From Clostridia bacterium (lineage in GTDB: Bacteria; Bacillota; Clostridia; Monoglobales; Monoglobaceae): DNA of 64,000 nucleotides. This document shows positions 18,519 through 39,461 of this stretch, in pieces. Under the pieces are notes generated by a model, which was not told where the DNA came from, ran no database searches, and saw only the letters and a list, made by a program, of their open reading frames with translations. A program made the translations under genes and the position numbers. How positions within the stretch are numbered: the stretch's first letter is position 1; each line of letters opens with the position of its first letter. The DNA is taken from contig JAZNBG010000035.1 in NCBI GenBank assembly GCA_045586925.1, positions 6,417-70,416 on the forward strand. The letters run 5' to 3'.

Positions 18519-19142
18519 GTGGATAAAAGACTTGGCGTACAAACTGTAAAAATGGAGCATCCTGTCAATATTCTTTCTGTGGCAAGTGTGGCAGGACAAA
18601 AGGAGTCGCAAGGCCCTTTGGCACAGCATTTTGATATCATTATGGAAGATGCCGAATGGGGCGAGCAAACTTGGGAAAAAACCGAGAGTAAGATGCAAAA
18701 ATCAGCGGTTATACGTGCTGTTGAAAAGGCTAGGGTTGACATTAAGGATATAAACTATCTTTTTGCAGGAGACCTTCTTAATCAGTGTATCAGTTCAACC
18801 TTTGGGCTAATGGATTTTGATATTCCCTTTATGGGAGTTTACGGTGCTTGCTCTACAATGGCAGAGACAATCGGACTTTCGGCAATAGCTATTGACGGCG
18901 GTTTTGCTAGGCTTGCGGCAGCAGTGACGTCAAGTCACTTCTGTACGGCTGAACGGCAGTACAGAAACCCGTTGGAATATGGTGGTCAGCGAACGCCTAC
19001 AGCACAATGGACTGTTACAGGCTCTGGGGCGGCAGTGCTTTCCAAAGAGGGGAAAGGCCCATATGTGACACATTTTACCTCGGGAAAGATTGTTGATTAT
19101 GGCATAAAGGATGCCAATAATATGGGTGCAGCGATGGCACCT
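18519..19142 (+). pseudogene. spoVAD: spoVAD 5' segment (codons 1-208 of a split gene)
   Basis: Thiolase-like SpoVAD N-terminal sequence (GACSTMAETIGLSA, TSSHFCTAERQYR). Homology ends at ...GAAMAP. The ORF then runs 8 unrelated codons to a stop at 19166. Confidence 0.9.
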
Positions 19143-19265
19143 GTAAGTGTTAAACTAACACCATAAGGCGATGTGCTAAATCTCTACAAATTATGCGCTT
19201 TTAAGCCTGATTTTGCATTTTGAGAGGTGATGGTTTAACACTTTTTATTATGGGAAGACGGAGGG

Positions 19266-19625: not shown

Positions 19626-20671
19626 GGAAAATATTTGCAGTTAGTATAGTTTTGATAATTCTGTTGCTCGGGAGCGAAGTTTTTGCAGCATATATTGTTT
19701 CAGGTCAGGATATTTATATCAACGGCTCAAAAGCAGAAATGTCAGCAATAAATTTTAATGATAATAATTATGTGAAACTTCGGGATATTACAAAAGCATT
19801 GAATATTGAGATTACATACAATGCAGAAACAAATACTGTTTCAATCAATACCAACAAGCCTTACACAGAGGAAAATCCGAAAGTTGATTACATAAACGGG
19901 AAATCGTATGCAAGAGAAGATTTCACGCAAAAAGCTAATTCCGGTATTTTTAATGATGTGTATACAAGAGATGCTTATAATGCAATCAGGCAATCTATTA
20001 TTGATATTGCAGAAATTACAAATAATACCGATGAGAATGGATATAATGCAAATTATGAGTATGCTCACTTTGTTGATGACACATCTGACGGAATGGGAGA
20101 AACAATAGAAGCAATGAAATCCGTAACAGCAACAATGTTTGGTTATTACAATTTCAGTTTCGGTTATGAGCCAACAATATCAAACTTCTATGAATATCCC
20201 GGATACCGAATTTGCAAACCACAGATACATAAATACTTTGAACCAGCAAACAATGCAACCGACAGCTTTGTTGCAGAGATATCCAATTTTGCTGACCGAG
20301 AAAAAGTCAAACGGATTGCTGATTATATCTGCGAAAGGGTTGCATATAAGAATGAGAATGTTGCAGGAATAAATAAAGTATTTACAGGCACACCTCCTGT
20401 CAATGGAGTATGCGGTACTTATGCAGATGCATTTGTTTATCTTTGCCAACGAGCAGAAATTCCTTGCATATCAGTTGTTGATGATATTCACGCATGGAAC
20501 GAAGTGTATGTTGACGGCAAATGGTACACTACAGATATAAGCTATTATGATGTAGCAAGAACAGATGAATACCTGTTCCCTAAAAACTATCCTCGCACTG
20601 ATATAAACAAACAGAAAACAAATTTTACAAAAGAATTACTTGTTCCTGGAAGTACAAAAAGTACCGATTAA
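19622..20671 (+). CDS. Secreted transglutaminase-like cysteine-protease-fold protein with an N-terminal copper-amine-oxidase-like stalk domain
   Basis: Signal peptide MRKIFAVSIVLIILLLGSEVFA. NNYVKLRDITKALN stalk motif. Cys-His-Asp core in GVCGTYADAFVYLC ... IHAWNEVYVDGKWYTTD. Confidence 0.6.
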   Translation: MRKIFAVSIVLIILLLGSEVFAAYIVSGQDIYINGSKAEMSAINFNDNNYVKLRDITKALNIEITYNAETNTVSINTNKPYTEENPKVDYINGKSYAREDFTQKANSGIFNDVYTRDAYNAIRQSIIDIAEITNNTDENGYNANYEYAHFVDDTSDGMGETIEAMKSVTATMFGYYNFSFGYEPTISNFYEYPGYRICKPQIHKYFEPANNATDSFVAEISNFADREKVKRIADYICERVAYKNENVAGINKVFTGTPPVNGVCGTYADAFVYLCQRAEIPCISVVDDIHAWNEVYVDGKWYTTDISYYDVARTDEYLFPKNYPRTDINKQKTNFTKELLVPGSTKSTD

Positions 20672-20814
20672 AAACAAATTTTTAATCATATAGGGGGTTG
20701 CAAAAAAATTATTTTTTGGCCAAATTTTTAAATGTGTAGATATTGAAAAAATTGCACACCCCCTAAATGTGCTAAAAACGCAGTAATACAGGCGTTTTCA
20801 GGATGTGCAGAATT

Positions 20815-21137
20815 GTGAATTTTCAGGAAGATTTTGCACTAGTAGGGAGGGTTGCAAAATAGTCTTGAAAATAAGCACTAAAAGTTGTATCAAAGAACAG
20901 AAGTCGCCAAAGCATTTTTGCAGGGACTGTAGTTAAACATTATAATGTAGTTTTGAGTAAAAAGCAGATAAAAGAATTAAAGTTATTGCAAGAGCCTTGA
21001 AGGAAATAAGGAGTATGAACTCTAGAAATAAACTTGCAAAAGACGGAGTATTAGAGTTAAAACACACAACGCTTTGAAGAAAAAAAGAAAAGCAATCCGG
21101 CACCTTTGAAAGAACAAATCTTTTAAGGGTGCTTTTC
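20815..21137 (+). repeat. Direct repeat copy A (~320 bp) ending in a terminator hairpin
   Basis: Aligns with 27833-28161, including the identical blocks CACTAGTAGGGAGGGTTG and AAGTCGCCAAAGCATTTTTGCAGGGA. It ends with the GCACC...GGTGC hairpin (21100-21132) plus a T-run. Confidence 0.8.
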
Positions 21138-21198
21138 ATTACTAAGAAGTCGATATAACATTACAGATTATACTCAAACACAAATTAGTAAATCATAC

Positions 21199-21227
21199 TT
21201 GACTAATTTATTTTTATATGCTATAAT
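21199..21227 (+). promoter_or_regulatory. Sigma-A promoter of the defence gene cluster
   Basis: TTGACT (21199-21204), 17 nt, TATAAT (21222-21227). Confidence 0.55.
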
Positions 21228-21256
21228 GTAGATAACCTAAAATGGAGGTCATGTAT

Positions 21257-22648
21257 ATGTTTATAGGCAGAGAAAGAGAGCTTGAAGCTCTGAATAAGCT
21301 TTATAAATCAAATAAATTTGAATTTGCGGTTATCTATGGCAGACGCCGCGTTGGTAAAACTGCGCTCATAAATGAGTTTATAGATAACAAAAAAGCCATA
21401 TATTTTATGGGTGTTGAAAGCAATGCAAAGCAGAATCTTGAAAACTTCTCAAAAAGCATTATGGAGTTTGCAAGTGGTATTGAAACGGAATCCTCTTTCC
21501 TTTCGTTCCAGGCGGCGTTAGAGTATGTATTCAAGCTTGCGGAAAACGAAAGAATCATTCTTGCTATTGATGAATACCCTTATGTGGCTCGTTCATCAAA
21601 AAGCCTTGCATCTACTTTACAACTTCTAATTGATAAATATAAAGATACATCAAAATTGATGCTTATTCTCTGTGGTTCTTCTATGTCCTATATAGAAGAC
21701 CATGTGCTTGCATATAAAGCGCCTCTTTATGGCAGAAGAACAGCACAAATGAAACTTTTGCCATTTGACTTTGAGGAAACATGCAGATATTTCAAAAATC
21801 TATCTGATGAAGATAAAGCACTTATTTATGGCGTTGCAGGTGGCACACCGCAGTACCTTTTGCAGATGGACGATAAATTAAGCGTTGAAGACAATATAAA
21901 AAACACATACTTAAATCCAATTTCATTCTTGTATGAGGAACCAACTAATCTTTTAAAACAAGAAGTGCGTGAACCGGCTATTTACACTGCGATCATTACA
22001 GCTATTGCAACTGGCTCATCAAGAATGTCAGAGATTTCAAGTAAAGTTGGCGAAGATACAAATGTATGTGCAACTTATATTAAAAACTTGATTAATCTTG
22101 GCATTGTTCAGAAAGAAACACCGTATGGTGAAAAGGCATCTCGTAAGTCAGTTTACTCCATTGAGGACAATATGTTCCGCTTCTGGTATCGCTTTGTTCT
22201 TGAAAACAACTCAATCATTGCACGTGGTGCTGCTGATTTGGTTTACAAAAGAATTGAACCACATTTTTCTAACTATATGGGTAAGGTTTTTGAAGAAATT
22301 TGTAAACAGTATCTTTGGAAACAACTTCTTTCCGGTAACTGCCCTGTAGAGTTTACCTCTCTCGGCCGCTGGTGGGGTAATGATCCGAAAGAAAAGAGCC
22401 AAACTGAAATTGATATTATGGGAGAACAGGATAAAAACACAGCTCTCTTTGCAGAATGTAAGTGGACTAACGAAAAGGTTGACCTCGGTGTTTTAGAAAC
22501 ACTTATAAAACGAGGTAATTTGTTCTCATATAAAACAAAGCATTATTACCTGTTCTCAAAATCAGGATTTACAAAAGGTTGTATTGATAAGGCTAACGAG
22601 ATGAGTAATGTAAGTTTGATAGAGTTTGCGGATATGATGGAGGTATAG
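21257..22648 (+). CDS. AAA+ ATPase (Arch_ATPase type) with a C-terminal DUF234 nuclease-like domain
   Basis: The opening MFIGRERELEAL and Walker A GRRRVGKTAL, plus Walker B LAIDEYPY. The C-terminus EIDIMGEQDKNTALFAECKW resembles a PD-(D/E)xK motif. Confidence 0.65.
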   Translation: MFIGRERELEALNKLYKSNKFEFAVIYGRRRVGKTALINEFIDNKKAIYFMGVESNAKQNLENFSKSIMEFASGIETESSFLSFQAALEYVFKLAENERIILAIDEYPYVARSSKSLASTLQLLIDKYKDTSKLMLILCGSSMSYIEDHVLAYKAPLYGRRTAQMKLLPFDFEETCRYFKNLSDEDKALIYGVAGGTPQYLLQMDDKLSVEDNIKNTYLNPISFLYEEPTNLLKQEVREPAIYTAIITAIATGSSRMSEISSKVGEDTNVCATYIKNLINLGIVQKETPYGEKASRKSVYSIEDNMFRFWYRFVLENNSIIARGAADLVYKRIEPHFSNYMGKVFEEICKQYLWKQLLSGNCPVEFTSLGRWWGNDPKEKSQTEIDIMGEQDKNTALFAECKWTNEKVDLGVLETLIKRGNLFSYKTKHYYLFSKSGFTKGCIDKANEMSNVSLIEFADMMEV

Positions 22649-22649
22649 T

Positions 22650-24737
22650 ATGGCTAAGAAAAAGAATAAACATGAAGCATTGTCTGTTGGAAGATTAATT
22701 AACGAAGTTTTAGTCGATCAGCTAGGAATCCCATTTCGAAACATAGTTAATGATACAACTTTTTCAGATTTTACAGGTTCTAAAAGACCAGATATTTTAA
22801 TAGGAAATTTTGAATATACTGGATCAAACAATGAACAATATATAAAAAATCTTGTTGCATATGCAGAAGCAAAAGACATTACATGCAAAGTGGATGATAC
22901 TGAGTGGAAAGATGCGGTAAATCAAGGTAAAGAAAAGGCTGCAAAATTAGGATTACCATTTTTCGGTGTAACAAATTGTAAAACAACATATTTTTACAAT
23001 TTAAAAACCGGAAATAGAATTTCTTTAAACGGTAATGTCATCTATGAATTTCAGACATTGGATGTTTTTAGAATAATAAAAAAGCAATTAACCGAAAAAC
23101 CAAATGTTGATGATATAAAAATAGGTATAGATTCACTATCCTCTGTTTCAGAAGCTGTTTTCAACAAAAAACTTTGGGAGCTAAAAGAAGAATATCGTGC
23201 GATAGATTTCGAAAATAATACACAAAAAATAGATTTTACTGTAGGAATGATTGCGTTAGAATATTATGAAGAAAAAGCTGAGATAGATGGAACTAAAGAT
23301 AATTCTATGCAGTATTGGTCTACATGTAAGGCGATGATTCCCAATCCATATACATATGAAAACTCAAACACAATAACAACGATTTTAGTAACATATATAG
23401 ATAGACTTACTGGCGAAGAGTCGGAGTTTAAAGAATTTTCTCCGCTTTTAAAGAAGGTAAAGGAATTAATAAGCGGTCAGAAACCTATGATTAATTCTAA
23501 ACGTTTGCAATCTATATATTTTATTATTGATTCTATGCGACCTCTGCATGGTACGGGCTTTGACTTGTTCGGTGCAGTGTATGAAAATTTTGCAAACACA
23601 AAAGAGAAGAAGGATTTTGGTGAGTATTTTACAAGGCGACATTATGCACATGTTTTTGCGGAGTTATTGTTGCAGAAAGAAGATATTTTTAATTCCGAAT
23701 ATAAATTTTCTATTTTAGACCCAGCTTGTGGAACTGGCGGAATGCTTACAGAAAGTTTTAAGGTTTTGAAAAACAACTATGAATCTTCGGGTACATTTGA
23801 TCAAGAAGCACAAACTTTTTTGTCCGAAGAGTGCTTTTATGGAATAGATGTAAGAGGAGAAAATATTTCAAGAACCCGTTTAAATATGTTTTTGGTTGGT
23901 GATGGGCACACAAACATGCACTCTGATGACTCATTAAACCCAACAACAAAAACTGGGAAGAAATTTTTGAATAAAAAATATAAATATATCATAACAAACC
24001 CTCCTTATGGACCGGGTACAGAATTAGCAAACACAGATAGTATAAACTCTTATAGGTTCGAAATAGCGTTTATCTGTAGAATTATAGATCTCCTAGAAAG
24101 AAATGGTCAAGCGTGTATAATCACCCCTGATGGCATTTTGGAAAACCCTTCTTTGAAAAAGTTTCGAAATGAGATTTTGCAAACATGTGAAATATATGCA
24201 ATAGTTTCTTTACCCAAGTTTGCTTTTGCACCTTATACAAAAGAAAAAACATACGCATTATTCATTAGAAAACTACATGATAGAGCGTCCTCGGAGCAAA
24301 CCAATAAAAAATTGCCTACTGGGAAATTCCAATCAACTCCAATTTGGATGTATATCATTGATAACGATGGCTTTGCTAATTCTGATAAGAGATTCCCTAC
24401 TAGACTTAGAGATTCAAGTCAAAGATGGCAGCATGATGAGGTTTCGGGTTATGCTGATAGCGAAGGTATAGAAAGAAAAAGTATTCTTGAACAGCGATGG
24501 TTAAATTTTGACGATACAGCTACGGGTGGAACATTGTGGATTGATGAAGATGGCATTGAAGTAAAAATGAGAAAAGGTGGCTTTGTACAAATTGACTCTA
24601 TTCGAAATAATGATTTTTTGACTTTACTTCCAGAATATTATCTAAGACCATATGAACCTAAGTTTATAACAGAGGAACAATTTAATGAAAGTATGGATAA
24701 TATTGAACGTGAGATAAAAGAGTTTTTTGGACTGTAG
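22650..24737 (+). CDS. Fused restriction endonuclease / N6-adenine methyltransferase (BcgI-A-like, type IIB/IIG)
   Basis: N-terminal PD...ExK candidate (RPDILI ... AYAEAKD). Methyltransferase motif I LDPACGTGGML and motif IV ITNPPYG. No HsdR gene nearby. Confidence 0.6.
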   Translation: MAKKKNKHEALSVGRLINEVLVDQLGIPFRNIVNDTTFSDFTGSKRPDILIGNFEYTGSNNEQYIKNLVAYAEAKDITCKVDDTEWKDAVNQGKEKAAKLGLPFFGVTNCKTTYFYNLKTGNRISLNGNVIYEFQTLDVFRIIKKQLTEKPNVDDIKIGIDSLSSVSEAVFNKKLWELKEEYRAIDFENNTQKIDFTVGMIALEYYEEKAEIDGTKDNSMQYWSTCKAMIPNPYTYENSNTITTILVTYIDRLTGEESEFKEFSPLLKKVKELISGQKPMINSKRLQSIYFIIDSMRPLHGTGFDLFGAVYENFANTKEKKDFGEYFTRRHYAHVFAELLLQKEDIFNSEYKFSILDPACGTGGMLTESFKVLKNNYESSGTFDQEAQTFLSEECFYGIDVRGENISRTRLNMFLVGDGHTNMHSDDSLNPTTKTGKKFLNKKYKYIITNPPYGPGTELANTDSINSYRFEIAFICRIIDLLERNGQACIITPDGILENPSLKKFRNEILQTCEIYAIVSLPKFAFAPYTKEKTYALFIRKLHDRASSEQTNKKLPTGKFQSTPIWMYIIDNDGFANSDKRFPTRLRDSSQRWQHDEVSGYADSEGIERKSILEQRWLNFDDTATGGTLWIDEDGIEVKMRKGGFVQIDSIRNNDFLTLLPEYYLRPYEPKFITEEQFNESMDNIEREIKEFFGL

Positions 24738-24746
24738 GAGGAATAA

Positions 24747-25901
24747 ATGAAATATCAAGTAAAAGATTATCCTATTTGTGATGCTATCTCTTGCATGAGT
24801 GGAAATTCTGGTTTAACAGAGGAATTTATATATAGTACGACACAGATAAAGGGTAAAAGGTATATAGTTTTATCCAGTGCTTTAGAAGAGGAAACAATGA
24901 TGGGCGAAGTTCCGATGTGTACTTTAAACGATAAACCAATTAAAGTCTTTGAAAATAAGGAAGGGCTACTGGTTGCCAGAAATGGCAGAGCCGGGACAAC
25001 AAGATATTTAACCCCAGGGCGATATACAATTAATGATCATGCATATATCCTTTCGGTTAAAAAAGGTTGTCCATATAAAATTGATCTGAGATGGTTGGCT
25101 ATTCAATATAAAACTGAATTTCTTTCATATTCATCAGCTTCAGATAATGGCACATGGAACAAAACTGGCTTTTTTAAAAATGTTACAATAGACGTTCCTG
25201 ATATTGATGAGCAGATACGAATCGTTAATATGGTAGAAAAGGCACAACAAACTATAGAAAAGATAAAAATAATTAAGAAGGATTTGCTTAAAGCATTTGA
25301 ACGCATAATTTCTGTCGAATATTCTAAATATGTTAAACGTAATATACCAATTAATGATGTTTTAGATTGTATGAGTGGCAATTCGGGATTAACATCCGAA
25401 TTCATATATAGCACTTTACATAAGCCAGGTAAAAGATTCAAAGTTTTGTCTGGAGCAACACAAGAAGAGAATTTATTAGGAGAAATCCCCAAATGTGCAA
25501 TAGACGATAAAATGATTAAAACTTTTGAAGATAAAGAAGGTCTCCTAGTTGTTAGAAAAGGGAAAGCAGGTGCTACAAAGTTTCTGCCAAAGGGTAACTA
25601 TACAATAAATGATGATGCATATATCTTGTCTGTAAAGCCGGACTTTGAAAAGTTGGTTGATATTAGGTGGATAAAGATTCATTGTAAAACAGACTTTATG
25701 AATTATTCATCATCTTCGGACAATGGTACATGGAACAAAACAGGCTTTTTTAAAAATGTTACAATAGACATTCCAGCGTTGGAAGAACAAAAACGTGTTG
25801 CAGCAACATATGAGAAGGCCGAAAAGTATTTTGAAAAAATACAAAAAATCGAAAAGCAACTAACAGAATTGTTGGATAAAAGGCTCTGTTCAGAATTGTA
25901 A
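24747..25901 (+). CDS. HsdS-like specificity subunit with two homologous target-recognition domains
   Basis: The two halves (aa ~10-190 and ~200-384) align throughout, for example CMSGNSGLTEEFIYST / CMSGNSGLTSEFIYST and SDNGTWNKTGFFKNVTID in both. Confidence 0.75.
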   Translation: MKYQVKDYPICDAISCMSGNSGLTEEFIYSTTQIKGKRYIVLSSALEEETMMGEVPMCTLNDKPIKVFENKEGLLVARNGRAGTTRYLTPGRYTINDHAYILSVKKGCPYKIDLRWLAIQYKTEFLSYSSASDNGTWNKTGFFKNVTIDVPDIDEQIRIVNMVEKAQQTIEKIKIIKKDLLKAFERIISVEYSKYVKRNIPINDVLDCMSGNSGLTSEFIYSTLHKPGKRFKVLSGATQEENLLGEIPKCAIDDKMIKTFEDKEGLLVVRKGKAGATKFLPKGNYTINDDAYILSVKPDFEKLVDIRWIKIHCKTDFMNYSSSSDNGTWNKTGFFKNVTIDIPALEEQKRVAATYEKAEKYFEKIQKIEKQLTELLDKRLCSEL

Positions 25902-26018
25902 TGATAGTCAGATGTGTGAAGTTTTTTGATTTGCATATACCAAGAGCTCAAAAAAACATAGACTTTAGATAAGATTGATGTTTAAGTGATTGAACTCTTC
26001 TTACAGGAGGGAATATAA

Positions 26019-26660
26019 ATGTGGAGAAAGTTCCGTTGGGATATGTTTGTTACATCATTTATCCCATTATGGTTTTCTATTATTGTTTTTAATCTATGGA
26101 AAGTAGTAGAAATTTCAATTGATGTTTGGGATAAGAAAAGCAAGTACATTGATAACATAGTAAATTGCATTGAAAAAAGCTATGTTGAACTCGGTGTTAT
26201 GCTTGTTGTTATTTTACTTGTTTGGATTAGTATTAGTGGAATTAGCTCTTTTATAAAGGAACGTAAGTCTACAGAAAATAATCCTAAAGGGAAAATAATA
26301 CGAGCAACTAAAGCTAACAAACTTTCTTCTGAGTTTTTGTTAGCATACATACTTCCTATGATAGCTTTTGACTTTGGAGAAATAAAGGATATAGTTTTGT
26401 TTGTTATATACTTTTCTGTATTGGCCTTTTTGTGCATAAGAAACAATAATATTTATACAAATATTCTTTTGGAATTTAAGGGTTATAAAATGTACAACTG
26501 CGATATTGAGTGTTCGGTGCTTGAAAAGAAAAAGATTTATCACGACAGCTTGATAATAAGTGAAGTAGACTTAACTCAGATGGAAGAAAATGAGATACCA
26601 TATTGGGATTTTGACAAATATATTTATATAGCAATAAACGAGGTGGAAGATAGTGAGTAA
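26019..26660 (+). CDS. Four-TM membrane protein, KwaA-like (candidate Kiwa component)
   Basis: 213 aa with 4 predicted TM helices. It overlaps the next gene by 8 nt. Size and architecture match KwaA as I recall it, but no sequence comparison was possible. Confidence 0.35.
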   Translation: MWRKFRWDMFVTSFIPLWFSIIVFNLWKVVEISIDVWDKKSKYIDNIVNCIEKSYVELGVMLVVILLVWISISGISSFIKERKSTENNPKGKIIRATKANKLSSEFLLAYILPMIAFDFGEIKDIVLFVIYFSVLAFLCIRNNNIYTNILLEFKGYKMYNCDIECSVLEKKKIYHDSLIISEVDLTQMEENEIPYWDFDKYIYIAINEVEDSE

Positions 26661-27585
26661 AACCGTACTAAAGACAATATGTGAATGTGGAAAAAATGGT
26701 CAATATTCATGGAGTTTGTTTTTCTTCAAAACAGACAAAAGAAATAAACAGCCTTATAAAATGTTTAAGGTTCGTTTTAAAAACGCTAATTATCTTACTA
26801 CATATGCAGCAAACTTAATTGAGACTGTTGATAAGTTTCAAATTGAACCTATAAGCGATGTCCAGGATTACGATGGTGAGAATTCAAAAGTATCATGTGA
26901 TAAGATTGAATTGTCTAATCAACTAATTAGCGAACAGTGGACCTTATTCACCGAAGCTGTTGCAAGTGCCGCTGATGGTAAAGCCGACGGAAGAATTAAT
27001 GGTTATATATTGTACGGACAATCTTTAAAAGAAGATGACAAGCCTATTACACTTGTTAAAGTGGCAAATCCGATAACAAAGCTTACAAACAAAAAAAGTG
27101 TAATATTCACGACTACTGCAGATGATGAACTGGAATTAATGTCTGATGATGTATGTAGGCTTTATCTTACTACTGACTTTATTGTTTTTGATGGAACCAT
27201 GTATACATTCAACCATACATTTGAAACAATCTTTAATCTTGAGAAAACAATGGCTAAGGTGAAGAATGATGCTATAGAAGAGATATTAAGTACAAATGCT
27301 TTTTCTAATCCTGAAGAATTTAAAGCATTGGCAGGAAAATACAAATCATCACGCACCTTTATAACTCTTAAAAAAGAACGTGTAAATAGAATTAAAGATA
27401 AACGCAGTAGGAAGAAAGTCGCAGAAATGCTCAAACTTCCACTTGGTAGTGATGGAGAGTTTAATATAACAAAACCAGAAGATGCGTCTCTTTTATTGCG
27501 ATATCTGTGTTTTAAAATATTCCAGGATAATGAGACAATGGATGTGCTTGAGGCTAATACTGTAAACAAATTAAATCTTGCATAA
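26653..27585 (+). CDS. Soluble 310-aa protein, KwaB/DUF4868-like (candidate Kiwa component)
   Basis: Translationally coupled to the membrane protein upstream. Size is typical of KwaB. The assignment rests on architecture only. Confidence 0.35.
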   Translation: MSKTVLKTICECGKNGQYSWSLFFFKTDKRNKQPYKMFKVRFKNANYLTTYAANLIETVDKFQIEPISDVQDYDGENSKVSCDKIELSNQLISEQWTLFTEAVASAADGKADGRINGYILYGQSLKEDDKPITLVKVANPITKLTNKKSVIFTTTADDELELMSDDVCRLYLTTDFIVFDGTMYTFNHTFETIFNLEKTMAKVKNDAIEEILSTNAFSNPEEFKALAGKYKSSRTFITLKKERVNRIKDKRSRKKVAEMLKLPLGSDGEFNITKPEDASLLLRYLCFKIFQDNETMDVLEANTVNKLNLA

Positions 27586-27832
27586 GGTTCAATAAAAAGA
27601 CATGGAGAAATCAAACTCCACAGCTTTGCAGGAATATATGTTTTCTGAAACAAAATGAATATAAAATATACATTCATTTTAGGTGAGAAATATACAAATT
27701 TTACTCCCGAGGGGGTTGGGAAAAACGGAAATTTTAGCGTTTTTTGAAAAGTAGTCAAAAAAGCATAACAACTCCACATATCAAATGCCGCTTATCCCTA
27801 GTAAAATAGCCACATTCAGGACTTGTAAAAAT

Positions 27833-28161
27833 TTAATTTTCAGACCACTTTTCCCACTAGTAGGGAGGGTTGGGGAAAACGCTTTTTGGTGTAATATTAA
27901 AAACGGTAAAAAATACACAAGTCGCCAAAGCATTTTTGCAGGGAATGTAGTTAGACGTAACGAGGTAATTTTGAGTGAAAACCAGTTAAACGTACAAAAG
28001 TAGTTACAAGAGCTTTGGAGGAAATAGCGAGAACAAAACTTGCGGATATAGTTAGCAAAAGACGGAGCAATAAAGTTGAAACACACAACGATTTGAAGGA
28101 ATAAAACATAAATAAATTCAGCACCGTTGAAAGATTTAAAATCTTTTGAGGGTGCTTTTTC
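27833..28161 (+). repeat. Direct repeat copy B (~320 bp) ending in a terminator hairpin
   Basis: Homologous to 20815-21137. It ends with a GCACC...GGTGC hairpin (28121-28155) plus T5, immediately upstream of the resolvase promoter (TGaTATAAT, hexamer 28193-28198). Confidence 0.8.
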
Positions 28162-28233
28162 TATAAACAAAATAATAACACCTGTCCGGTGATATAATAT
28201 CATAAAAAGCCATTATGGTTTGGAGGTGTTGTT

Positions 28234-28908
28234 ATGACATATGGATATGTTAGAGTGTCCTCAAGTGATCAAAATGTAGACAGACAATTAATTGAAATGG
28301 AAGGATTAACAATCCCCGTACAAAATATTTTTATAGATAAACAATCGGGTAAAGACTTTAAGCGCCCACAATATATTAAATTGCTTGAGGTTCTTAAAAA
28401 AGGTGATTTATTATATGTAAAGTCAATAGACCGTTTGGGGCGAAACTATAAAGAAATACTGGAACAATGGCAAATGCTGACTAAAGAAATGGAAGTTGAT
28501 GTTGTTGTAATAGATATGCCACTTTTAGATACACGAACTGCTAAAGATTTGCTCGGTACATTCATAGCGGACTTGGTTTTACAAGTGCTTTCTTTTGTGG
28601 CTCAAAGCGAGCGTGAAAACATAAAGAAACGCCAAGAAGAAGGCATAAAAGCTGCCAGACTTCGTGGCGTTAAATTTGGACGACCTGTTATTCCCGTGCC
28701 GGATAATTTTGAGTTTCTTGTTGAACAATGGGAACATGGGGAAATATCCGCCGATTATGTGGCTCAGAAAAGCGAAATGAGTGAATCAACCTTTTATAGA
28801 AGATTAAAAGAATTAAGGAAAAACACAAAACAAAAATCACTGTCAAATGGTACACTTTTTGACAGTGATTATTTTTTGTTGATATATACTGTTAAAAACA
28901 GATTTTAA
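28234..28908 (+). CDS. Small serine recombinase (resolvase/invertase family)
   Basis: Catalytic N-terminus YGYVRVSSSDQNVDRQ, SIDRLGRN, and a C-terminal HTH (SESTFYRRLKE). The last ~25 codons read through a terminator hairpin. Confidence 0.85.
   Translation: MTYGYVRVSSSDQNVDRQLIEMEGLTIPVQNIFIDKQSGKDFKRPQYIKLLEVLKKGDLLYVKSIDRLGRNYKEILEQWQMLTKEMEVDVVVIDMPLLDTRTAKDLLGTFIADLVLQVLSFVAQSERENIKKRQEEGIKAARLRGVKFGRPVIPVPDNFEFLVEQWEHGEISADYVAQKSEMSESTFYRRLKELRKNTKQKSLSNGTLFDSDYFLLIYTVKNRF
28835..28878 (+). terminator. Rho-independent terminator overlapping the resolvase 3' end
   Basis: 13-bp perfect stem AATCACTGTCAAA / TTTGACAGTGATT followed by ATTTTTTG. Confidence 0.7.
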
Positions 28909-29051
28909 CACAAAAATTATACTATATTCCCCTTGAAAAGTCAATTAAATGATTTTATTTCTTACCAATCTCCAGTTGAACTGCCTTTGTCAAAAAGTGT
29001 ACTTTTTGGTAAAGCTATCAAGTTATTAGCTAATGGAGGTGTTCGACAAGA

Positions 29052-29552
29052 ATGGAAAACAACAGAGAACAGGAACTGAGGAAGCATAGATGCTGTTTTA
29101 CAGGTCATAGACCTGATAAAATGATACAAGGCGAAAAAGAGATTAAACCGCTACTTGAGGCGGCTATAGATAAGGCAATAGCTGAAGGTTATGTAACTTT
29201 TTTAACGGGCATGGCAATGGGGACAGATATATGGGCTGCTGAAATAATTTTAGATAGAAAGAAAAAGAACAAAAATTTACATCTTATTTGCGCACTGCCG
29301 CATCCTGGCTTCGATAGCAAAAGAAGTGTTGCAGAGAAAATACGGTTTGCAAAAATACTAAAGAAAGCAGATATAGTAAGAGAAATAAGCAATCACTTCT
29401 TCAAGTCATGTTACCAAAAACGAAATGAATGGATGGTTGACAGATCAAATTTGGTTATAGCGGTATTCAACGGAGAACCAAGTGGGACTAAAAATACGGT
29501 CATTTACGCTCAAAGGAAGGGCGTAGAAATCAATAATGTTTTAAAAAACTAA
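29052..29552 (+). CDS. SLOG-fold protein of the DUF1273/YpsA family
   Basis: CCFTGHRP, FLTGMAMGTDIWAAE and the ALPHP pattern resemble B. subtilis YpsA-type SLOG proteins. Confidence 0.6.
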   Translation: MENNREQELRKHRCCFTGHRPDKMIQGEKEIKPLLEAAIDKAIAEGYVTFLTGMAMGTDIWAAEIILDRKKKNKNLHLICALPHPGFDSKRSVAEKIRFAKILKKADIVREISNHFFKSCYQKRNEWMVDRSNLVIAVFNGEPSGTKNTVIYAQRKGVEINNVLKN

Positions 29553-29637
29553 ATATACAAATACAACAAATCATTGACAACTTCATTATATTATTTTAAA
29601 GCAGTGGTAGAATATATACATAAAGGAGTTGTCGAAT

Positions 29638-30477
29638 ATGAAAAGAATTACAAACGAATTAATTAAGAAATTCAGAGAATATCTGTTAAGTGAAGAAAAG
29701 GCAGTAGCAACGATAGAAAAGTATATCCACGATGTTCTTGTGTTTATGACTTGGCTTGCAGGAGCAGAGGTTACCAAAATGGCAGTTCTTGAATATAAAC
29801 AGGAACTAACTGAGAAGTATGCTCCCACAAGTGTTAATGCCGCGCTTTCTTCGTTGAATAGTTTCTTTGTTTTCAATGAATGGTACGATTGTAAAGCGAA
29901 AGCTGTGAAAATTCAAAAGCAGATTTTTGCCAATAAAGAGAAGGAATTATCAAAGGCTGAATACGAAAGACTGCTTTTAGCGGCAAAACAAAAGAAAAAT
30001 CAAAGACTTTACTTTCTTATGCAGACGATATGCAGCACCGGGATACGTGTATCTGAGTTGAGATTTATAACAGTTGAAGCTGTTTTAAGAGGACAGGCAC
30101 ATATTAACTGTAAAGGTAAGATGCGGGTTGTTATTCTCACAAATCAACTCTGTAAAATGCTGAAGAACTATATAAAAGATAATAAAATAATAAGTGGCTC
30201 GGTTTTTGTTACTAAAACAGGTAAGCCACTTGATCGTTCTAATATATGGTCGGATTTGAAAAAACTCTGTGAATGTGCGGGAGTAGATAAAGAAAAAGTT
30301 TTTCCACATAATTTTAGGCATTTGTTTGCGCGCACTTATTATACTTTGCAAAAAGATATAGTTCGTCTTGCTGATATCCTCGGTCATTCCAATGTAAACA
30401 CTACAAGGATTTACACAATGGAAAGCGGAGAGATGCATCGCAAGCAATTGCAAAAACTTGGATTACTGATATGTTAA
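29638..30477 (+). CDS. Tyrosine site-specific recombinase (XerC/D-like)
   Basis: SAM-like N-terminal domain. Catalytic residues are in TGIRVSEL (Arg), HNFRHLFA (His-x-x-Arg) and GHSNVNTTRIYT (His, Tyr). ATG 29638 follows AAGGAG. Confidence 0.85.
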   Translation: MKRITNELIKKFREYLLSEEKAVATIEKYIHDVLVFMTWLAGAEVTKMAVLEYKQELTEKYAPTSVNAALSSLNSFFVFNEWYDCKAKAVKIQKQIFANKEKELSKAEYERLLLAAKQKKNQRLYFLMQTICSTGIRVSELRFITVEAVLRGQAHINCKGKMRVVILTNQLCKMLKNYIKDNKIISGSVFVTKTGKPLDRSNIWSDLKKLCECAGVDKEKVFPHNFRHLFARTYYTLQKDIVRLADILGHSNVNTTRIYTMESGEMHRKQLQKLGLLIC

Positions 30478-31432: not shown

Positions 31433-32569
31433 ATGGCTATAATTGATAGAATAAAATATGATGGTCCACAAGATGCTTCGCCATGGTTGATTCACAAATA
31501 TCCAAGTGAAGAATTTGTTTTAGGTTCGCAGTTGATTGTAAATCAGGGACAAGAGGCTTTGTTCTTCAAAGGTGGAGAAGCACTCGATTTATTTGGTGCG
31601 GGAACTCACACTTTACATACGGGAAATCTACCCTTACTGAAAAAAATAGTTAATTTACCGTTTGGTGGAGAAACACCGTTCTCAGCAGAAATTTATTATA
31701 TTAATAAAACTTCAAAATTAGATATGAATTGGGGTACTGCAAACCCATTTCAGCTTGAAGATCCCAAATATGGTCTTATATTATCTATAAGATCACACGG
31801 CAAGTATGGATTGCGTATTACGGATTCAAGAATGTTTGTTAATGAGCTTGTTGGCGCTATTCCTAATGGTGCAACAGTAAACTATCCGTTTGTTGCAAGT
31901 TATTTTAGTGGTTTGTTAACTACATATGTAAAAACTGTTATTTCTAATTTTATGATAAAACAAAAGATTTCTTTTCTTGAGGTAACGGCGTACTTAAGGG
32001 AATTATCGGAAGAATGCCAAAAAGAGATTTCAAACGAGTTCGATAAATATGGTGTTGAAATACAAAATTTCTTTATTGAAGCTATTTCACCTCCAAAAGA
32101 AGAATTTGAAAAGCTTCGCACATATAAAGAAGAGTTGTCTTTGGGAAATGATTTCTATAAACAACGTCGTTCTTTTGATGTATTAGAAAAATTGGCAGAT
32201 AACCCCAATGCAGGTGGAATGGCTAATGCAGGAATCGGATTGGGTATGGGCTTAGGGGTCGCTCCTAATATGGGAAATATTTTTGGTGGAATTGGTGAAA
32301 ATACCATGAATATCAATGGTCAGACAGGCGCGCAAGGAAAAGTATGCCCTAAATGTTCTGCCCAGGTTGCTGAAGGATTAAAGTTCTGTGGTAATTGTGG
32401 GGAGAGGATTAGCAATTCGTTGATATGTCCATCATGCAATCATGAAAATCCTGAAAATACTAAGTTCTGTGGCAACTGTGGTCAAAAACTTGTAAACAAA
32501 TGCAGCGAATGTGGAACAGAGAACGATTTAGGTCAAAAATTCTGCGGTAATTGTGGAAATAAACTGTAA
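31433..32569 (+). CDS. SPFH/Band-7 domain protein with C-terminal triple zinc ribbon (YdjI-like)
   Basis: The N-terminal ~230 aa resemble B. subtilis YdjI (virion-core-like SPFH). A Gly/Met-rich linker is followed by CPKCSAQV..CGNCG, CPSCNHEN..CGNCG and CSECGTEN..CGNCG. Confidence 0.7.
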   Translation: MAIIDRIKYDGPQDASPWLIHKYPSEEFVLGSQLIVNQGQEALFFKGGEALDLFGAGTHTLHTGNLPLLKKIVNLPFGGETPFSAEIYYINKTSKLDMNWGTANPFQLEDPKYGLILSIRSHGKYGLRITDSRMFVNELVGAIPNGATVNYPFVASYFSGLLTTYVKTVISNFMIKQKISFLEVTAYLRELSEECQKEISNEFDKYGVEIQNFFIEAISPPKEEFEKLRTYKEELSLGNDFYKQRRSFDVLEKLADNPNAGGMANAGIGLGMGLGVAPNMGNIFGGIGENTMNINGQTGAQGKVCPKCSAQVAEGLKFCGNCGERISNSLICPSCNHENPENTKFCGNCGQKLVNKCSECGTENDLGQKFCGNCGNKL

Positions 32570-32589
32570 AAGAGGTGAAAAGACAGAAT

Positions 32590-35500
32590 ATGGGCAAATA
32601 TATAGCATATTTTTACATAGACAATCAATTAATGCAATTTGATCTCGACTTGTTGCTAAATAATTGTGTTGATAATTATTTAGGTGAATCAATTCTTCCG
32701 GTAGGAAGTAAGCAACTATTTCCCATTAAAACAGAGAATAAAAAATATTACCTTTATGGGAATTTTAGCAATTGGAAAATTGTTTGTAACGGAAGTGAAG
32801 TCGGAGAAAAAGTTGAAATATCACATGGAAGTTACATCAATTTTTCATCTAAGAAAAGCTCCTATTCTGTTTTGATATCAGAAACAGCTAACTTTAGTAT
32901 ATATAATAATTGTTTGGAAATTCAAAAAAATCAGAATATCTTTATAGGTAGGGCTCCGGAGAGCAACATTGTAATAGATATTAACGATAGTGTATCAAGA
33001 AAACATGCAGCAATAAGATTAGATGCATCAGGCAATGGCTTTGTTGAGGATTTGTCACGTAAAACAGGTGTTTTCCTAAATGGAAAAAGAATTGTTTCAA
33101 GCGAAATAAAATGTGGGGACATTATTCATATAATGGGTGTGTCTATATGTTTTATGGGGACATTTCTTGTTGTTCCTAAAAATATTGTTACAAACGGGAT
33201 GAAAGAGGTCAAGTCTTTTAATGTTGCGCAGCCAACAGATAAAGAGCTTGAAGATACTTATGCAAGGACACCAAGAATATTAAAGTCATTGGATAGAAAC
33301 AAAATAATTATAGATGCACCTACACAGCCTCAAAAATCCAAACAACAACCTTTTATTCTGGTTGCGGGACCTTCTGCGACAATGGCATTAGGTATGATGG
33401 CTAGTTTTGGAGTAACTTTAGCTAATGCACTGAATGGTGGAAACATATCTTCAACTATTACCGGTGGTGTAATGGTTATAAGTATGTTGTTGGGTTCTTT
33501 AATGTGGCCTTCTTTACTTAGAAATTACACTAAAAGACAAGAAATCGCAAATGAAAAGTATAGAGTAGAGAAATATAAATACTATTTGTCGGAAAAAGAA
33601 GCAGAAATAAGAAAATCCTACGAAAGAAATTGCAGAATATGGAATGAAAATCTTTTGCCAGCACCCGATAAATTGTCTCAAATTGTTTTTGAACGAGGTA
33701 TAAATCTTTGGGAAAGAACATTTACAGATGAGGACTTTCTGCAGGTTAGACTTGGAATAGGTGCCAAATTATTTGAAACAGAAATCCAACATCCAAATAA
33801 AGGCTTTACATTGCATGATGACGCATTGATAGATGAAGCAATAAACTTAGCAAACAAATATAAAATGTTAGAAAATGTTCCAATTAGCGTATCATTAATA
33901 AACCAAAGAACAGTTGGAATAGTTGGAGAAAGTGAAAAAATACATAATACACTTAGATGTATGATTCTAAACACGGTTGCACTTCACTCACCTGAGGATG
34001 TAAAGATTTGTGTTATTTGTAATGAACTTCAAATTGAGCAGGTAGAGTGGATAAAAGATTTGCCTCATTGTTGGGATTCTGCTAAAACAACACGATATTT
34101 TGCAACTAATAATATGGAAGCACAAAGACTGCTCAATGATATGGATGAGAAAATTCAAGAAAGAGAAGAATTGATTGACAAAGATGCAATCAGAACCCCT
34201 CATACCATAGTTGTTGTTTTGGATGAAAAAGTAGTTGAAAATATACCTTTTTATAGATACTTAATTGATTCCAAAAACAATGTAGGCATATCCTCTATTT
34301 TTATTGCAGAACACTTTAATAGAATACCTAAAGAGTGTACTGCAATAATTCAAAACGAAAAAGATATATGCGGAATTTATACAAAGAATGAAAACGATAA
34401 TAGATTTGTTTGTTTCAAATCTGATGAGTTTAAACTGACGGATGCTAAAAAAATCAGTCAGAGTATGTCTGAGATTCCGGTTAAGGTTGAGAAAACAAAA
34501 CTTAGTGTTCCTAACCGTGTATCATTTTTGGATATGTATAAGGTGGGAAATATTGAGAATCTTTCAATTGAACAAAAATGGGCAAATAATATGTCAGACA
34601 AAACGCTTGCTGTTCCTATTGGAATAAAAGCAGGCGGAGAATTGTTCTGTTTGGATATACACGAAAAACACCATGGTTGTCACGGATTAGTTGCCGGAAT
34701 GACAGGCTCGGGTAAAAGTGAATTTTTACAGGCATTTATATTATCAGCATTAATTAATTTTAGTCCTAATGAAATTGCATTTGTACTGGTGGACTTTAAA
34801 GGTGGAGATATGGCTCGACCATTTTTGAAGGTTCCGCATCTTTCTGCAACTATATCAAATCTATCCGAAAATATTTTGTATAGAGCATTGATTTCTTTGG
34901 AGGCAGAAGTAAAATCAAGACAAAAAATATTTAATGAAGCCGCATCATTGTTGGGCATTGATAAAATTGATATTAATTCATACCATAAATATTTTAAGGA
35001 AGGTAGATTAACATTACCATTACCACACTTAGTAATTGTAATAGATGAGTTTGCACAATTGAAATCTCAACAACCTGAATTCATGGCTAAACTTGTTGAA
35101 ATAGCTCAGGTCGGAAGAAGTTTAGGAATTCATCTGATATTAGCAACGCAAAAACCGAGCGGTGTTGTTGATCCGCAAATATGGAGCAACTCAAGATTTA
35201 AAGTATGTTTGAAAGTGTTGGATAAGCAGGATAGTACGGAAATGATAAACAGACCGGATGCTGCTTTAATTAAATCTCCTGGACGTGCTTATGTTCAGGT
35301 CGGCTATGATGAAATTTTCGAACAGTTACAGTCAGGTTATAGCGGTGCTGATTATGTTGAACAAAAAGAGTATACAGATGATGAAGATGTAACAATAAAA
35401 CTTATAGATTCTGCTGCTATGCCAATTAGAAGCGCTCGTAGTATATCAGGAAATCTTAAGAGTGGTAAGACACAGTTAGAAGAAACTATAAATAAGATTG

Positions 35501-37239: not shown

Positions 37240-37255
37240 ATAGGAGGTGTATAAT

Positions 37256-38044
37256 ATGAATTTTTCTGACAAATCTTTACATTTAACATATGATGAGTTT
37301 TATGCATTAATGTGTTTGTTAGGTGCAAAAAGTGTTCAAGGAACTTTTGTTGAAAATCATAATAATATATCTCCAAATGATTTCGAGAATATATGGGCAG
37401 TCTGCGAAAAATCACTGATTTCTAAAGGATATATGACATTAGACGGTGAGGATTTGCAGCTGGATATTAGTTTATATAGCATTATAACAGCATGTGTGAA
37501 TGCCGAAAGAAAATATAGTGTACAATTGTCAAAAGATAAATCCAATATTATTGATACAGTTTTTTATGATGGAAATAAGGCAATGGTATGTATCAATAAT
37601 TGTGATGAAAAGAAAGAGGTTTATTTAAGTTATTGCAATAAAAAGAAATCTTTTGATAATGTGGTTAAGGAAATTCCGGATATTACACAAAATATGCTTA
37701 ACGAAAAATCTGCTGAAATTACCCTTTCACAGCAGGAATATTTCACACTCATGTCTAGTGCTAATTTGGGGGACTATACCAAGGCTCGAAATCTATTCCC
37801 TGATGATATGGAAGAAGAATATTTAATGGATTTGATAAACACATTAAAAAATTCTTATGGGTTACTATCGGTTAATGAATTTGAAGATGAGGAAATTAGC
37901 ACTTACAGCATTTTATTTGGAAAAGAATCTTTATGGGCTATTTATGCACAGGATGAAGAAACAATATCCTTTAAATTGGTATCCAAAACTGATTTAGAAG
38001 ATAGCCTCGCGCAAACTTTTGGTTATGACGGAGGTGGCAAATAA
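37256..38044 (+). CDS. Soluble acidic protein of unknown function (possible EspG-like secretion chaperone)
   Basis: No TM segments. The N-terminal LTYDEFYALMCLLGAK loosely recalls the EspG N-terminus. Its position between the essC-like and yukD-like genes is suggestive. ATG 37256 follows AGGAGG. Confidence 0.25.
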   Translation: MNFSDKSLHLTYDEFYALMCLLGAKSVQGTFVENHNNISPNDFENIWAVCEKSLISKGYMTLDGEDLQLDISLYSIITACVNAERKYSVQLSKDKSNIIDTVFYDGNKAMVCINNCDEKKEVYLSYCNKKKSFDNVVKEIPDITQNMLNEKSAEITLSQQEYFTLMSSANLGDYTKARNLFPDDMEEEYLMDLINTLKNSYGLLSVNEFEDEEISTYSILFGKESLWAIYAQDEETISFKLVSKTDLEDSLAQTFGYDGGGK

Positions 38045-38045
38045 A

Positions 38046-38303
38046 ATGACTGAAAAAATTACGTTATCGGTATGTGTACTAGGAATTAATAAAAATTGTG
38101 ATTTTTCTGTTCCGACAAATATGTCAGTTAGAGAAGCAATTAAGTTAATGAAAAAGGTGATAACCGAAGAATATTGGGGTAACTCACCTATGCCAAAGAG
38201 CAGAATGAATTTGATGAAGTTGTCTGATCTTGAGGTATTAAATGATTCATTGAGTTTTGCCCAACTCGGTATTTCAAGTGGAGAAAGATTGATTTTTGTT
38301 TAA
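38046..38303 (+). CDS. YukD/EsaB-like ubiquitin-fold T7SS protein
   Basis: 85 aa. The pattern CDFSVPTNMSVREAIKLM ... LGISSGERLIFV parallels B. subtilis YukD (which ends CGITNGDRLEIL). ATG 38046 follows GGAGG. Confidence 0.65.
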   Translation: MTEKITLSVCVLGINKNCDFSVPTNMSVREAIKLMKKVITEEYWGNSPMPKSRMNLMKLSDLEVLNDSLSFAQLGISSGERLIFV

Positions 38304-38317
38304 GGAGTGTAAAAAAT

Positions 38318-38614: not shown

Positions 38615-38632
38615 GAATTTGGAGGTGGAAAT

Positions 38633-38743
38633 ATGGAAGCTGCGGCTGCAACACCGATTAATTCAGTAGCAAGTACAGTGGTACCTATAGCGGTTGCTGT
38701 GCTTGTTGGAGTGGCAATTTTCGCTTTTTTAAGGCGAAAGTAA
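38633..38743 (+). CDS. 36-aa single-pass membrane peptide (not in the ORF track)
   Basis: ATG 38633 lies 6 nt after GGAGGTGG. It reads MEAAAATPINSVASTVVPIAVAVLVGVAIFAFLRRK: a hydrophobic helix followed by an RRK anchor. Confidence 0.5.
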   Translation: MEAAAATPINSVASTVVPIAVAVLVGVAIFAFLRRK

Positions 38744-39445: not shown

Positions 39446-39461
39446 TTTGAAGTTTGATAAA

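Follow-up and report, generated by a model that had tools for sequence, protein, structure and literature searches.

The five genes at positions 21242-27585 of the window, by which we mean the whole 64,000-nucleotide stretch of DNA that was analysed, are best read as three independent anti-phage modules that are probably transcribed from the promoter of the leading ATPase gene and that lie in an exchangeable slot of a 36.6-kb integrated island, a reading to which we give a probability of roughly 0.8. These modules are a single ATPase-DUF234 gene, a restriction-modification (R-M) pair resembling the type IIB enzyme BcgI, and a divergent Kiwa pair. Earlier, a sequence-only reading had described the region as a compact defence islet; its family assignments have held up, but the islet is not one unit, being composed of three autonomous modules that are each found elsewhere without the other two. 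All three are already-known kinds of anti-phage module, with PDC-S27, the type to which the ATPase belongs, still a candidate, and the find is in this sense largely ordinary.

Gene organization and transcription

The ORF list of the window gives the islet as five co-directional open reading frames on the + strand, spaced in order by 1 nt, 9 nt and 117 nt and ending in an 8-nt overlap between the fourth and fifth genes (26019-26660 and 26653-27585). Coordinates, translations and overlap are as the sequence-only reading had placed them, and the motifs that it quoted (RPDILI, AYAEAKD, LDPACGTGG, NPPYG and EID...ECK) are all present in the translations.

The sigma-70-type promoter that had been proposed for the five genes, TTGACT-17-TATAAT with a TG extension, was located on the + strand at 21199-21227, where it scores 11/12 and is joint-best across 20600-28300. 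The overall number of promoter-like sites is not raised (31 observed against 33.8 in shuffled sequence), so the match on its own is not significant; the promoter is nevertheless credible because ATPase homologues on at least 12 unrelated contigs, and in locus L021 too, are preceded by a conserved stretch of some 70 nt that includes it. The promoter belongs to the ATPase module. Upstream of the islet, a terminator with a 15-bp stem at 21099-21133 shields it from transcription coming from that side. The terminator and promoter scan, which for promoters covered 20600-28300, found no terminator and no strong promoter inside the islet, making it plausible that one promoter serves all five genes.

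An exchangeable slot in a mobile island

The islet is part of a 36.6-kb integrated island, which interrupts spoVAD and has type VII secretion genes among its contents. A sister element shares the backbone of this island, and its ATPase gene, 97% identical, is followed by GmrSD, a 738-aa RM protein, a 480-aa S protein and a gene for a 357-aa product. Homology between the window and this sister element is lost 9 nt short of the ATPase stop codon and resumes at the second copy of a conserved non-coding element of about 340 nt, which flanks the islet as a direct repeat. Copy 1, on the left (20797-21136, + strand) and 91% conserved in the sister element, ends in the terminator hairpin at 21099-21133. 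Copy 2 (27815-28159, + strand) closes the variable cargo on its right side and is followed closely by a resolvase gene (28234-28908); its last part is a terminator-like hairpin at about 28120-28159, and it is 83% identical to its counterpart in the sister element. The element matches no Rfam family.

The three modules thus occupy a slot of this mobile island whose cargo can be exchanged. P2/P4-like prophages and SXT-family ICEs have cargo hotspots in which defence genes gather, and the present island shares with such known hotspots a conserved backbone and a fixed slot in which unrelated defence genes are swapped between sister elements. It differs from them in its host, an island inserted in spoVAD with type VII secretion genes, and in its slot, whose two limits are the 3' end of the ATPase gene and the conserved, structured repeat of about 340 nt.

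The ATPase-DUF234 gene

The first gene (21242-22648, + strand) encodes a 468-aa protein in which an Orc/Cdc6-like P-loop domain (Pfam ATPase_2, 107.3 bits) is followed by a winged helix and a PD-(D/E)xK-like DUF234 domain (101.3 bits), together with a weak Pfam match to Mrr_cat (E 8e-4). This agrees with the NTPase with a C-terminal nuclease-like motif that had been read from the sequence. The motif appears in the translation as EIDIMG...AECK and is kept in 79 of the 81 ATPase homologues compared, with Walker A and Walker B each present in 81/81. In PADLOC, the PDC-S27 model PDLC04984 is matched over its full length by residues 5-437 at 221.8 bits. The sequence GGAGG at 21245-49, and the fact that most homologue alignments begin at query residue 6, suggest that translation starts at ATG 21257 rather than at 21242.

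Homologues of the ATPase at 81-95% identity occur in 80 metagenome loci, and the 59 of these with enough downstream sequence show 31 different downstream gene clusters. Beyond this island family, close homologues with promoters of their own turn up in many unrelated contexts, and several of these homologues adjoin type I R-M genes. The gene is an autonomous single-gene module. It shares the ATPase plus PD-(D/E)xK architecture described for PDC-S27, which is a candidate proposed from genomic embedding only, with validation pending (PMC12988326). Nothing sets the window ATPase apart from that family, and it is best regarded as an unvalidated candidate defence gene of the PDC-S27 type. It may work as a nuclease that depends on NTP and that, after a trigger, cleaves nucleic acid.

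A BcgI-like restriction-modification pair

The second gene (22650-24737, + strand) encodes a 695-aa fusion protein made up of a nuclease domain (residues ~10-150), a helical connector (~160-300), a gamma-class N6-adenine methyltransferase (~300-545) and a C-terminal region. The N-terminal PD-(D/E)xK nuclease domain has an HsdR/BpuSI-like fold, with GSKRPDILIG providing P47-D48 and AYAEAKD providing E73-A-K75. The methyltransferase domain, identified by Pfam N6_Mtase at 108 bits over residues 305-545, matches EcoKI M (E 1e-16) and contains LDPACGTGG at 356-364 and NPPYG at 450-454, motif I preceding motif IV in the gamma-class order. E19, P47-D48, E73-x-K75, DPxxGTGG and NPPY are invariant among 29 homologues of 61-86% identity, in keeping with the PD...ExK candidate and the gamma-class methyltransferase that had been recognized in this protein. 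The invariant E19, D48, E73 and K75 are the same E...D...ExK tetrad that mutagenesis has shown to be essential in BsaXI and that is conserved across type IIB enzymes (PMC11997821). In the AF2 model, helices at 160-294 connect the nuclease to the methyltransferase, and a last, lone helix occupies 675-692.

The third gene (24747-25901, + strand) encodes the separate HsdS-like subunit that had also been called, a specificity (S) protein of 384 aa with two target-recognition domains (TRDs). Pfam finds Methylase_S in two stretches, and many Specificity_I models of PADLOC match as well. The two halves are 56% identical (E 6e-80), and the duplication is seen in the DNA as an internal repeat.

Open reading frames and domain searches revealed no HsdR or translocase in the islet or its flanks, and none of the RM+S homologues in loci L001, L005, L008-L011 and L013 has HsdR beside it. 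A classical type I R-M system was rejected: neither the islet nor its neighbours include an HsdR-like open reading frame, and the nuclease domain forms one chain with M. Homologues of the pair at 62-85% identity form a self-contained two-gene unit free of HsdR, ATPase and Kiwa genes in four unrelated contexts, and the pair is thus an autonomous module.

These observations support the earlier assignment of the second and third genes to the type IIB (BcgI) arrangement. The BcgI-type RM+S group is described as having a nuclease, a helical connector, a methyltransferase and a lone C-terminal helix (PMC11997821), and the domain order and lone helix of the fusion protein match that description. Judged by this group description, the closest relatives are the BcgI-type enzymes BcgI, BveI, Hso63250II and HpyUM, which share with the window pair a nuclease (E...D...ExK), helical connector and EcoKI-like gamma-class methyltransferase on one polypeptide, a separate S subunit with two TRDs, the lone C-terminal helix and the lack of HsdR. 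The window subunits, at 695 and 384 aa, are also near in size to those of BcgI, which are about 637 and 341 aa.

The only solved relative is BsaXI (PDB 8w0p and 8w2p). Foldseek aligns 648 columns of the fusion protein with 8w2p_A (E 4e-14), with TM-scores that are low, as in all multi-domain matches. Detectable sequence similarity to BsaXI is limited to the methyltransferase domain (phmmer, E 6e-13), and the window protein, at 695 aa against the 916 aa of BsaXI, is without the "knob" and "paddle" of that enzyme.

By analogy with characterised relatives, from which the stoichiometry and cleavage pattern are taken, two RM fusions would probably dock through their C-terminal helices on the coiled-coil of one S subunit to give (RM)2S. 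The S subunit would read a bipartite site whose half-sites are probably alike, since the two halves of S are 56% identical. The methyltransferase would mark host adenines, and on unmodified DNA the N-terminal domains, which we infer to be active nucleases, would cleave at set distances to either side of the site with no need of a translocase.

A divergent Kiwa pair

The last two genes had been assigned to Kiwa from their architecture only, and this call is now backed by profile searches. The fourth gene (26019-26660, + strand) encodes a 213-aa KwaA-like membrane protein. The PADLOC search that had been proposed alongside the sequence-only reading, and that returned PDC-S27 for the ATPase and Specificity_I for S, matches this protein to KwaA at E 2e-20. 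Residues 90-210 align to solved KwaA, with matches to 9o0i at E 5e-6 and 9mrg at E 1e-5, and an identical kwaA gene in locus L012 is annotated by its source as PF28043 KwaA. The protein had been described as having four transmembrane segments; hydropathy gives three strong hydrophobic segments, and the fourth, at 103-118, is weaker and aligns to TM3 of KwaA. The fifth gene (26653-27585, + strand), with a GTG start inside the end of kwaA, encodes a soluble 310-aa KwaB-like protein with a DUF4868 domain. It passes the threshold of the Pfam KwaB family PF16162, scoring 57.7 bits where 26.3 are required, and its homologues are named KwaB-like or DUF4868 in their sources. Sequence searches, including one with a KwaB family profile, did not find solved KwaB.

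Both proteins fall under their NCBIfam equivalog cut-offs (KwaA 66 bits against 100, KwaB 29 bits against 200) and are therefore divergent members of their families. The pair is conserved in loci L012, L017, L018 and L020, and one homologue (P0145) is a fusion of KwaA and KwaB. In three contexts KwaAB lies directly downstream of an R-M module. The evidence supports reading the two genes as a divergent KwaA/KwaB pair, which shares with the Kiwa of Escherichia coli (PDB 9mrg, 9o0i; PMC11785009) a multi-pass membrane protein of about 200 aa and an overlapping DUF4868 protein of about 310 aa. It differs from the E. coli system in belonging to a divergent Firmicutes clade and in having a KwaB that lacks a sequence-level match to solved KwaB.

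If the pair works in the manner described for Kiwa (PMC11785009), membrane-embedded KwaA would sense the perturbation of the envelope during phage attachment or DNA entry and would then license the binding of KwaB, by its DUF4868 domain, to the incoming DNA, blocking replication and late transcription. As with the other modules, the triggers and the protection itself are here taken from characterised relatives.

Alternative readings

Two alternatives concern the function of individual modules. The ATPase-DUF234 gene could instead have a housekeeping or regulatory role in the island, for example in maintenance of the element or in exchange of cassettes at the slot that it borders. It is the sole islet gene retained when the cargo is swapped, and since it stays fixed with a homology break so close to its stop codon, it could belong to the island backbone rather than to defence; the family to which it belongs was, moreover, proposed by genomic embedding. 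We consider this unlikely, however, as homologues with their own promoters occur in many contexts beyond this island family, and the position of several of them beside type I R-M genes is the usual pattern of a free-standing defence gene. Somewhat less probable still is that the 695-aa protein and S form an orphan methyltransferase of the type I-like M2S kind, in which the PD-(D/E)xK-like domain is inactive or has another use such as DNA binding or regulation. In line with this, the top PADLOC models for the fusion protein are MTase_I and not a restriction enzyme, its homologues are named "N-6 DNA methylase" or "HsdM family" in their sources, type I HsdM subunits are the top matches of the whole model in Foldseek, and HSDR_N_2 reaches 21 bits on this protein, under the Pfam cut-off of 25.

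The remaining alternative unites all five genes in one system, in which the ATPase-DUF234 protein would serve the methyltransferase and S as a motor or as a nuclease, in a type I-like or MADS-like manner, with KwaAB as an accessory. The common strand, the 1-nt gap between the ATPase and RM genes and the islet interior free of terminators are what such a system would look like, the ATPase of the sister element is likewise tightly trailed by restriction genes, and RM and S match mad2 and mad5 in PADLOC, with a weak match of the ATPase to mad8. MADS, however, is an operon of eight genes, mad1-8, and needs every one of mad2-4 and mad6-8 (10.1101/2023.03.30.534895). Here PADLOC gives only the mad2-like and mad5-like matches and a mad8 match confined to the P-loop; most MADS genes are absent, the NCBIfam score for MAD2 is 94 bits where the cut-off is 720, and MADS was rejected. 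RM, S or Kiwa genes stand beside ATPase homologues in 0/80 loci. The comparative data thus largely refute a single system, which we regard as highly improbable. We prefer to think of three independent and separately mobile modules, because each of them occurs elsewhere without the others, the RM+S pair in its four contexts and KwaAB in two further ones (L017 and L020), where it follows other types of R-M genes.

Organization of the islet

The five genes of the islet are best read, from gene content and sequence comparison, as three independent modules stacked in a slot whose contents can be exchanged, and not as a single system. All five are recovered on the + strand between 21242 and 27585, and encode an ATPase (21242-22648, 468 amino acids), a nuclease-methyltransferase fusion, RM (22650-24737, 695 amino acids), a separate specificity subunit, S (24747-25901, 384 amino acids), a KwaA-like protein (26019-26660, 213 amino acids) and a KwaB-like protein (26653-27585, 310 amino acids). 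The genes are tightly arranged: the TAG stop of the ATPase gene ends at 22648 with the RM ATG at 22650, GGAGG stands upstream of both the RM and S genes, and the KwaB-like gene starts with a GTG located 8 nt within the KwaA-like gene. The sequence-only reading had described five co-directional genes, an 8-nt overlap of the last two and the motifs RPDILI, AYAEAKD, LDPACGTGG, NPPYG and EID...ECK, and all of these were found again in the open reading frames and their translations.

The same reading had placed the genes behind a TTGACT-17-TATAAT promoter, which is present at 21199-21227, matching 11 of 12 and carrying a TG extension. Promoter-like sites are no commoner around the islet than in shuffled sequence (31 against 33.8), so that the match by itself is weak proof. 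Approximately 70 nt spanning the promoter are kept in many unrelated contigs, where they lie 5′ of ATPase homologues, as well as in a sister element, a related island with other cargo that is discussed below, and a strong terminator lies shortly 5′ of the promoter at 21099-21133. The presence of GGAGG at 21245-49 ahead of ATG 21257, and the fact that most homologue alignments begin at residue 6, suggest that the true start of the ATPase is ATG 21257 and not the annotated ATG 21242.

Each of the three modules belongs to an already known kind. Homologues of the ATPase (81-95% identity) occur at 80 metagenome loci, none of which contains RM, S, KwaA or KwaB, and among the 59 loci with enough downstream sequence the gene next to the ATPase falls into 31 different clusters. 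The RM and S pair and the Kiwa pair (KwaAB) are each found elsewhere without the other modules, and the arrangement of the islet is repeated only in one 5.3-kb metagenome contig that is 98.4% identical. The understanding of all three defence systems is unchanged by these data, and their value is in annotation and context and not in new concepts; what stands out as less ordinary is the cargo slot with its bounding repeats, together with the spoVAD-splitting island.

The three modules

The ATPase matches Pfam ATPase_2 (107 bits) and DUF234 (101 bits), with a weak Mrr_cat match at the C-terminus. Walker A and Walker B motifs are found in all 81 homologues and the EID...ECK motif in 79 of them, which agrees with the proposal of an AAA-DUF234 ATPase with a C-terminal nuclease-like motif. 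The protein also matches the PADLOC model PDC-S27 over nearly its full length (222 bits). PDC-S27 is a single-gene candidate obtained by genomic embedding, with validation pending, and its published description is of an ATPase joined to a PD-(D/E)xK domain (PMC12988326). We infer a defence role for the ATPase.

The methyltransferase core of RM (Pfam N6_Mtase, residues 305-545, 108 bits) is related to the M subunit of EcoKI (E 1e-16) and to the RM subunit of BsaXI (E 6e-13). Across 29 homologues of 61-86% identity the motif I DPxxGTGG and motif IV NPPY are invariant, as are residues E19, P47-D48 and E73-x-K75 of the N-terminal domain. Profile searches of this domain against PDB sequences gave chance matches only, and a fold search was needed instead, which identified the HsdR fragment 3h1t (10.2, 24% identity), the type IIG enzyme BpuSI (8.5), EcoR124I HsdR (7.1) and DrdV (5.7), followed by Cas4 and Hjc. 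Pfam HSDR_N_2 is matched by all 16 homologous N-terminal domains examined, with the RM of the window slightly under the cut-off. In a full-length model (pLDDT 79.7) the nuclease is followed by a helical connector and then the methyltransferase, and residues 675-692 form a lone C-terminal helix; the model aligns with type I M subunits and, across 648 columns, with BsaXI RM. BsaXI depends on residues E73, D90, E105 and K107, all of which are conserved among type IIB enzymes, and the BcgI-type RM+S group combines R, H and M domains with a lone helix for docking onto the coiled-coil of S (PMC11997821); this is exactly the layout of the window RM. The S subunit contains two Methylase_S stretches, and the 56% identity of its halves points to similar half-sites.

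A classical type I restriction-modification system was rejected for these two genes because no HsdR is present at the islet. PADLOC matches to mad2 and mad5 of MADS were set aside as shared domains: MADS is an eight-gene operon (10.1101/2023.03.30.534895) that is absent at the islet, and RM scores 94 against the NCBIfam MAD2 cut-off of 720. The assignment of the genes as a BcgI-like pair is supported: the predicted type IIB arrangement of a fused nuclease-methyltransferase with a separate S and no HsdR holds, as does the combination of an N-terminal PD...ExK with gamma-class methyltransferase motifs, and RM is presumably an active nuclease. The pair is free-standing in four unrelated contexts (62-85% identity). 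Roughly one in four of the closest RM homologues is longer, at ~880-930 amino acids (P0014, P0017-P0019, P0064, P0106 and others), and some of these carry a fused Methylase_S/TRD as single-chain variants, similar to the fused TRD of single-chain type IIB and IIG enzymes. The family is large (>877 matches at E <1e-10) and comes mostly from gut and rumen metagenomes, where the source names are only “N-6 DNA methylase” or “HsdM”. In plasmid and phage collections there is no close relative of RM, with identity <27% in the best 15 and <60% in all 1,916 matching records, and the islet DNA is without a match there. The BcgI-like type IIB group gains a large and poorly annotated family whose members, if active, would provide new restriction enzymes with bipartite sites.

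The last two genes are a genuine but divergent Kiwa pair. The KwaA-like protein matches twelve PADLOC KwaA models (best E 2e-20) and the solved KwaA structures 9o0i (E 5e-6) and 9mrg (E 1e-5), and scores 66 bits against NCBIfam KwaA, under the cut-off of 100. It had been described as a 4-TM protein; hydropathy supports three strong hydrophobic segments, the fourth being weaker. The KwaB-like protein passes Pfam KwaB (57.7 bits against a cut-off of 26.3), is well under the NCBIfam equivalog cut-off, and gives no match to solved structures by single sequence or family profile. Its homologues carry the source names DUF4868 or KwaB-like, with one KwaB entry (P0121) being 100% identical and another protein (P0145) being a 492-amino acid KwaA-KwaB fusion. 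The PADLOC and Pfam searches place both genes in the KwaA and KwaB families and not in unrelated ones, and the Kiwa call of the sequence-only reading stands. In two other contexts the two genes again lie side by side, with 91-95% identity, and at locus L020 they lie 3′ of an 827-amino acid R-M-S fusion. In the Escherichia coli system a membrane supercomplex built from KwaA tetramers and KwaB dimers senses membrane perturbation, after which KwaB binds incoming DNA through DUF4868 and replication and late transcription are blocked (PMC11785009). By analogy, the islet pair would operate through the same mechanism.

Cargo exchange and the flanking repeat

The sister element is found in a goat-colon MAG of the Oscillospiraceae (L021) and on two metagenome contigs (L104 and L105). 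Its 5′ genes, Gp49-like and transglutaminase-like, are those of the window, and it also shares the promoter, a 97%-identical ATPase and a non-coding direct repeat of ~340 nt. The cargo is different, and comprises a GmrSD-type protein (PADLOC HEC-06/Orf5-like), a 738-amino acid RM, a 480-amino acid S and a 357-amino acid protein (L104 13052-19717, also in L105 and L021). The 738-amino acid protein matches HSDR_N_2 (strongly) and N6_Mtase and is a different fusion from the window RM, while the 357-amino acid protein is unassigned, starts at the last base of the S stop codon and has no PADLOC match. DNA homology between the window and the sister element covers 19896-22639, ends 9 nt before the ATPase stop and restarts at 27855; this break and restart indicate that RM, S and KwaAB are exchangeable cargo, with the ATPase fixed. 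The comparison directly shows that one defence cargo has replaced another at a slot with precise bounds in a Clostridia-type island, consistent with the picture of defence genes as cassettes that can be exchanged.

In both elements the repeat brackets the ATPase and the variable cargo. Copy 1 (20797-21136) precedes the ATPase promoter, and copy 2 (27815-28159) contains the point where homology to the sister restarts; the sister copies lie at L104 11181-11520 and 20823-21050. Between the two window copies the overall identity is 74%, and some blocks are completely identical. Copy 2 of the window and copy 2 of the sister share 83% identity, closer than copies 1 and 2 within one element, and the duplication of the repeat therefore predates the cargo swap. 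A terminator hairpin ends all three copies seen whole (both window copies and the first sister copy), sister copy 2 stopping at the end of the locus sequence with its 3′ end outside the comparison. The repeat also has a hairpin with an invariant loop, CTAGTAGGGAGGGT, on three different stems, each self-complementary.

The repeats may be a structured RNA of a new kind, terminating and controlling each operon. Rfam returned nothing at gathering thresholds in the whole window and only sub-threshold chance hits around the repeats, scans with a core 26-mer and 18-mer matched one genome contig (L021) and no viral contigs, and a covariance model of the core, run over 1.29 Mb of loci, gave no additional copy that was convincing. 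Two weak covariance matches 5′ of other ATPase genes were rejected, having only a generic hairpin in common. Alternatively, the repeats may be recombination sites at which the adjacent small serine resolvase, whose gene lies 3′ of copy 2, excises or swaps the 5-8 kb defence cargo; relatives of this resolvase in viral contigs are 58-59% identical and are without the repeat. That the repeats serve as working parts of a device for cassette exchange or regulation, and that the island is in addition a regulated intervening element, we consider improbable as a joint proposal.

The host island

Between ~19 and 56 kb the GC content falls from 41-44% to 30-35%, and spoVAD is split, with Pfam profile positions 1-207 at 18519-19166 and 201-328 at 55697-56104. 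Joining CCTG at 19140-19143 to CCTG at 55708-55711 restores the frame (...GAAMAP|AAADT...) and gives the junction ...ATGGCACCTGCGGCGGCAGAT... in the rebuilt gene. A large serine recombinase (53898-55580) lies at the right end of the ~36.6-kb insert, in which no phage structural genes are recognisable, and the island may be excised by this recombinase to rebuild spoVAD, as a regulated intervening element. spoVAD is expressed in the forespore, which would make it an unusual target for a skin-like element, and it is not mentioned in the literature found on intervening elements of sporulation genes.

The insert also carries a type VII secretion-like cluster (31433-45585), containing an SPFH/zinc-ribbon protein, a 1554-amino acid FHA and FtsK (EssC-like) protein, a YukD-like protein, three WXG100 proteins and DUF4176, with a PP2C phosphatase and two Ser/Thr kinases in the same region. 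Further recombinases are present at 28234-30477, 3′ of repeat copy 2, where the small serine resolvase, a YpsA/SLOG protein and a tyrosine recombinase are encoded, and a second tyrosine recombinase (52675-53535) adjoins the large serine recombinase near the right end.
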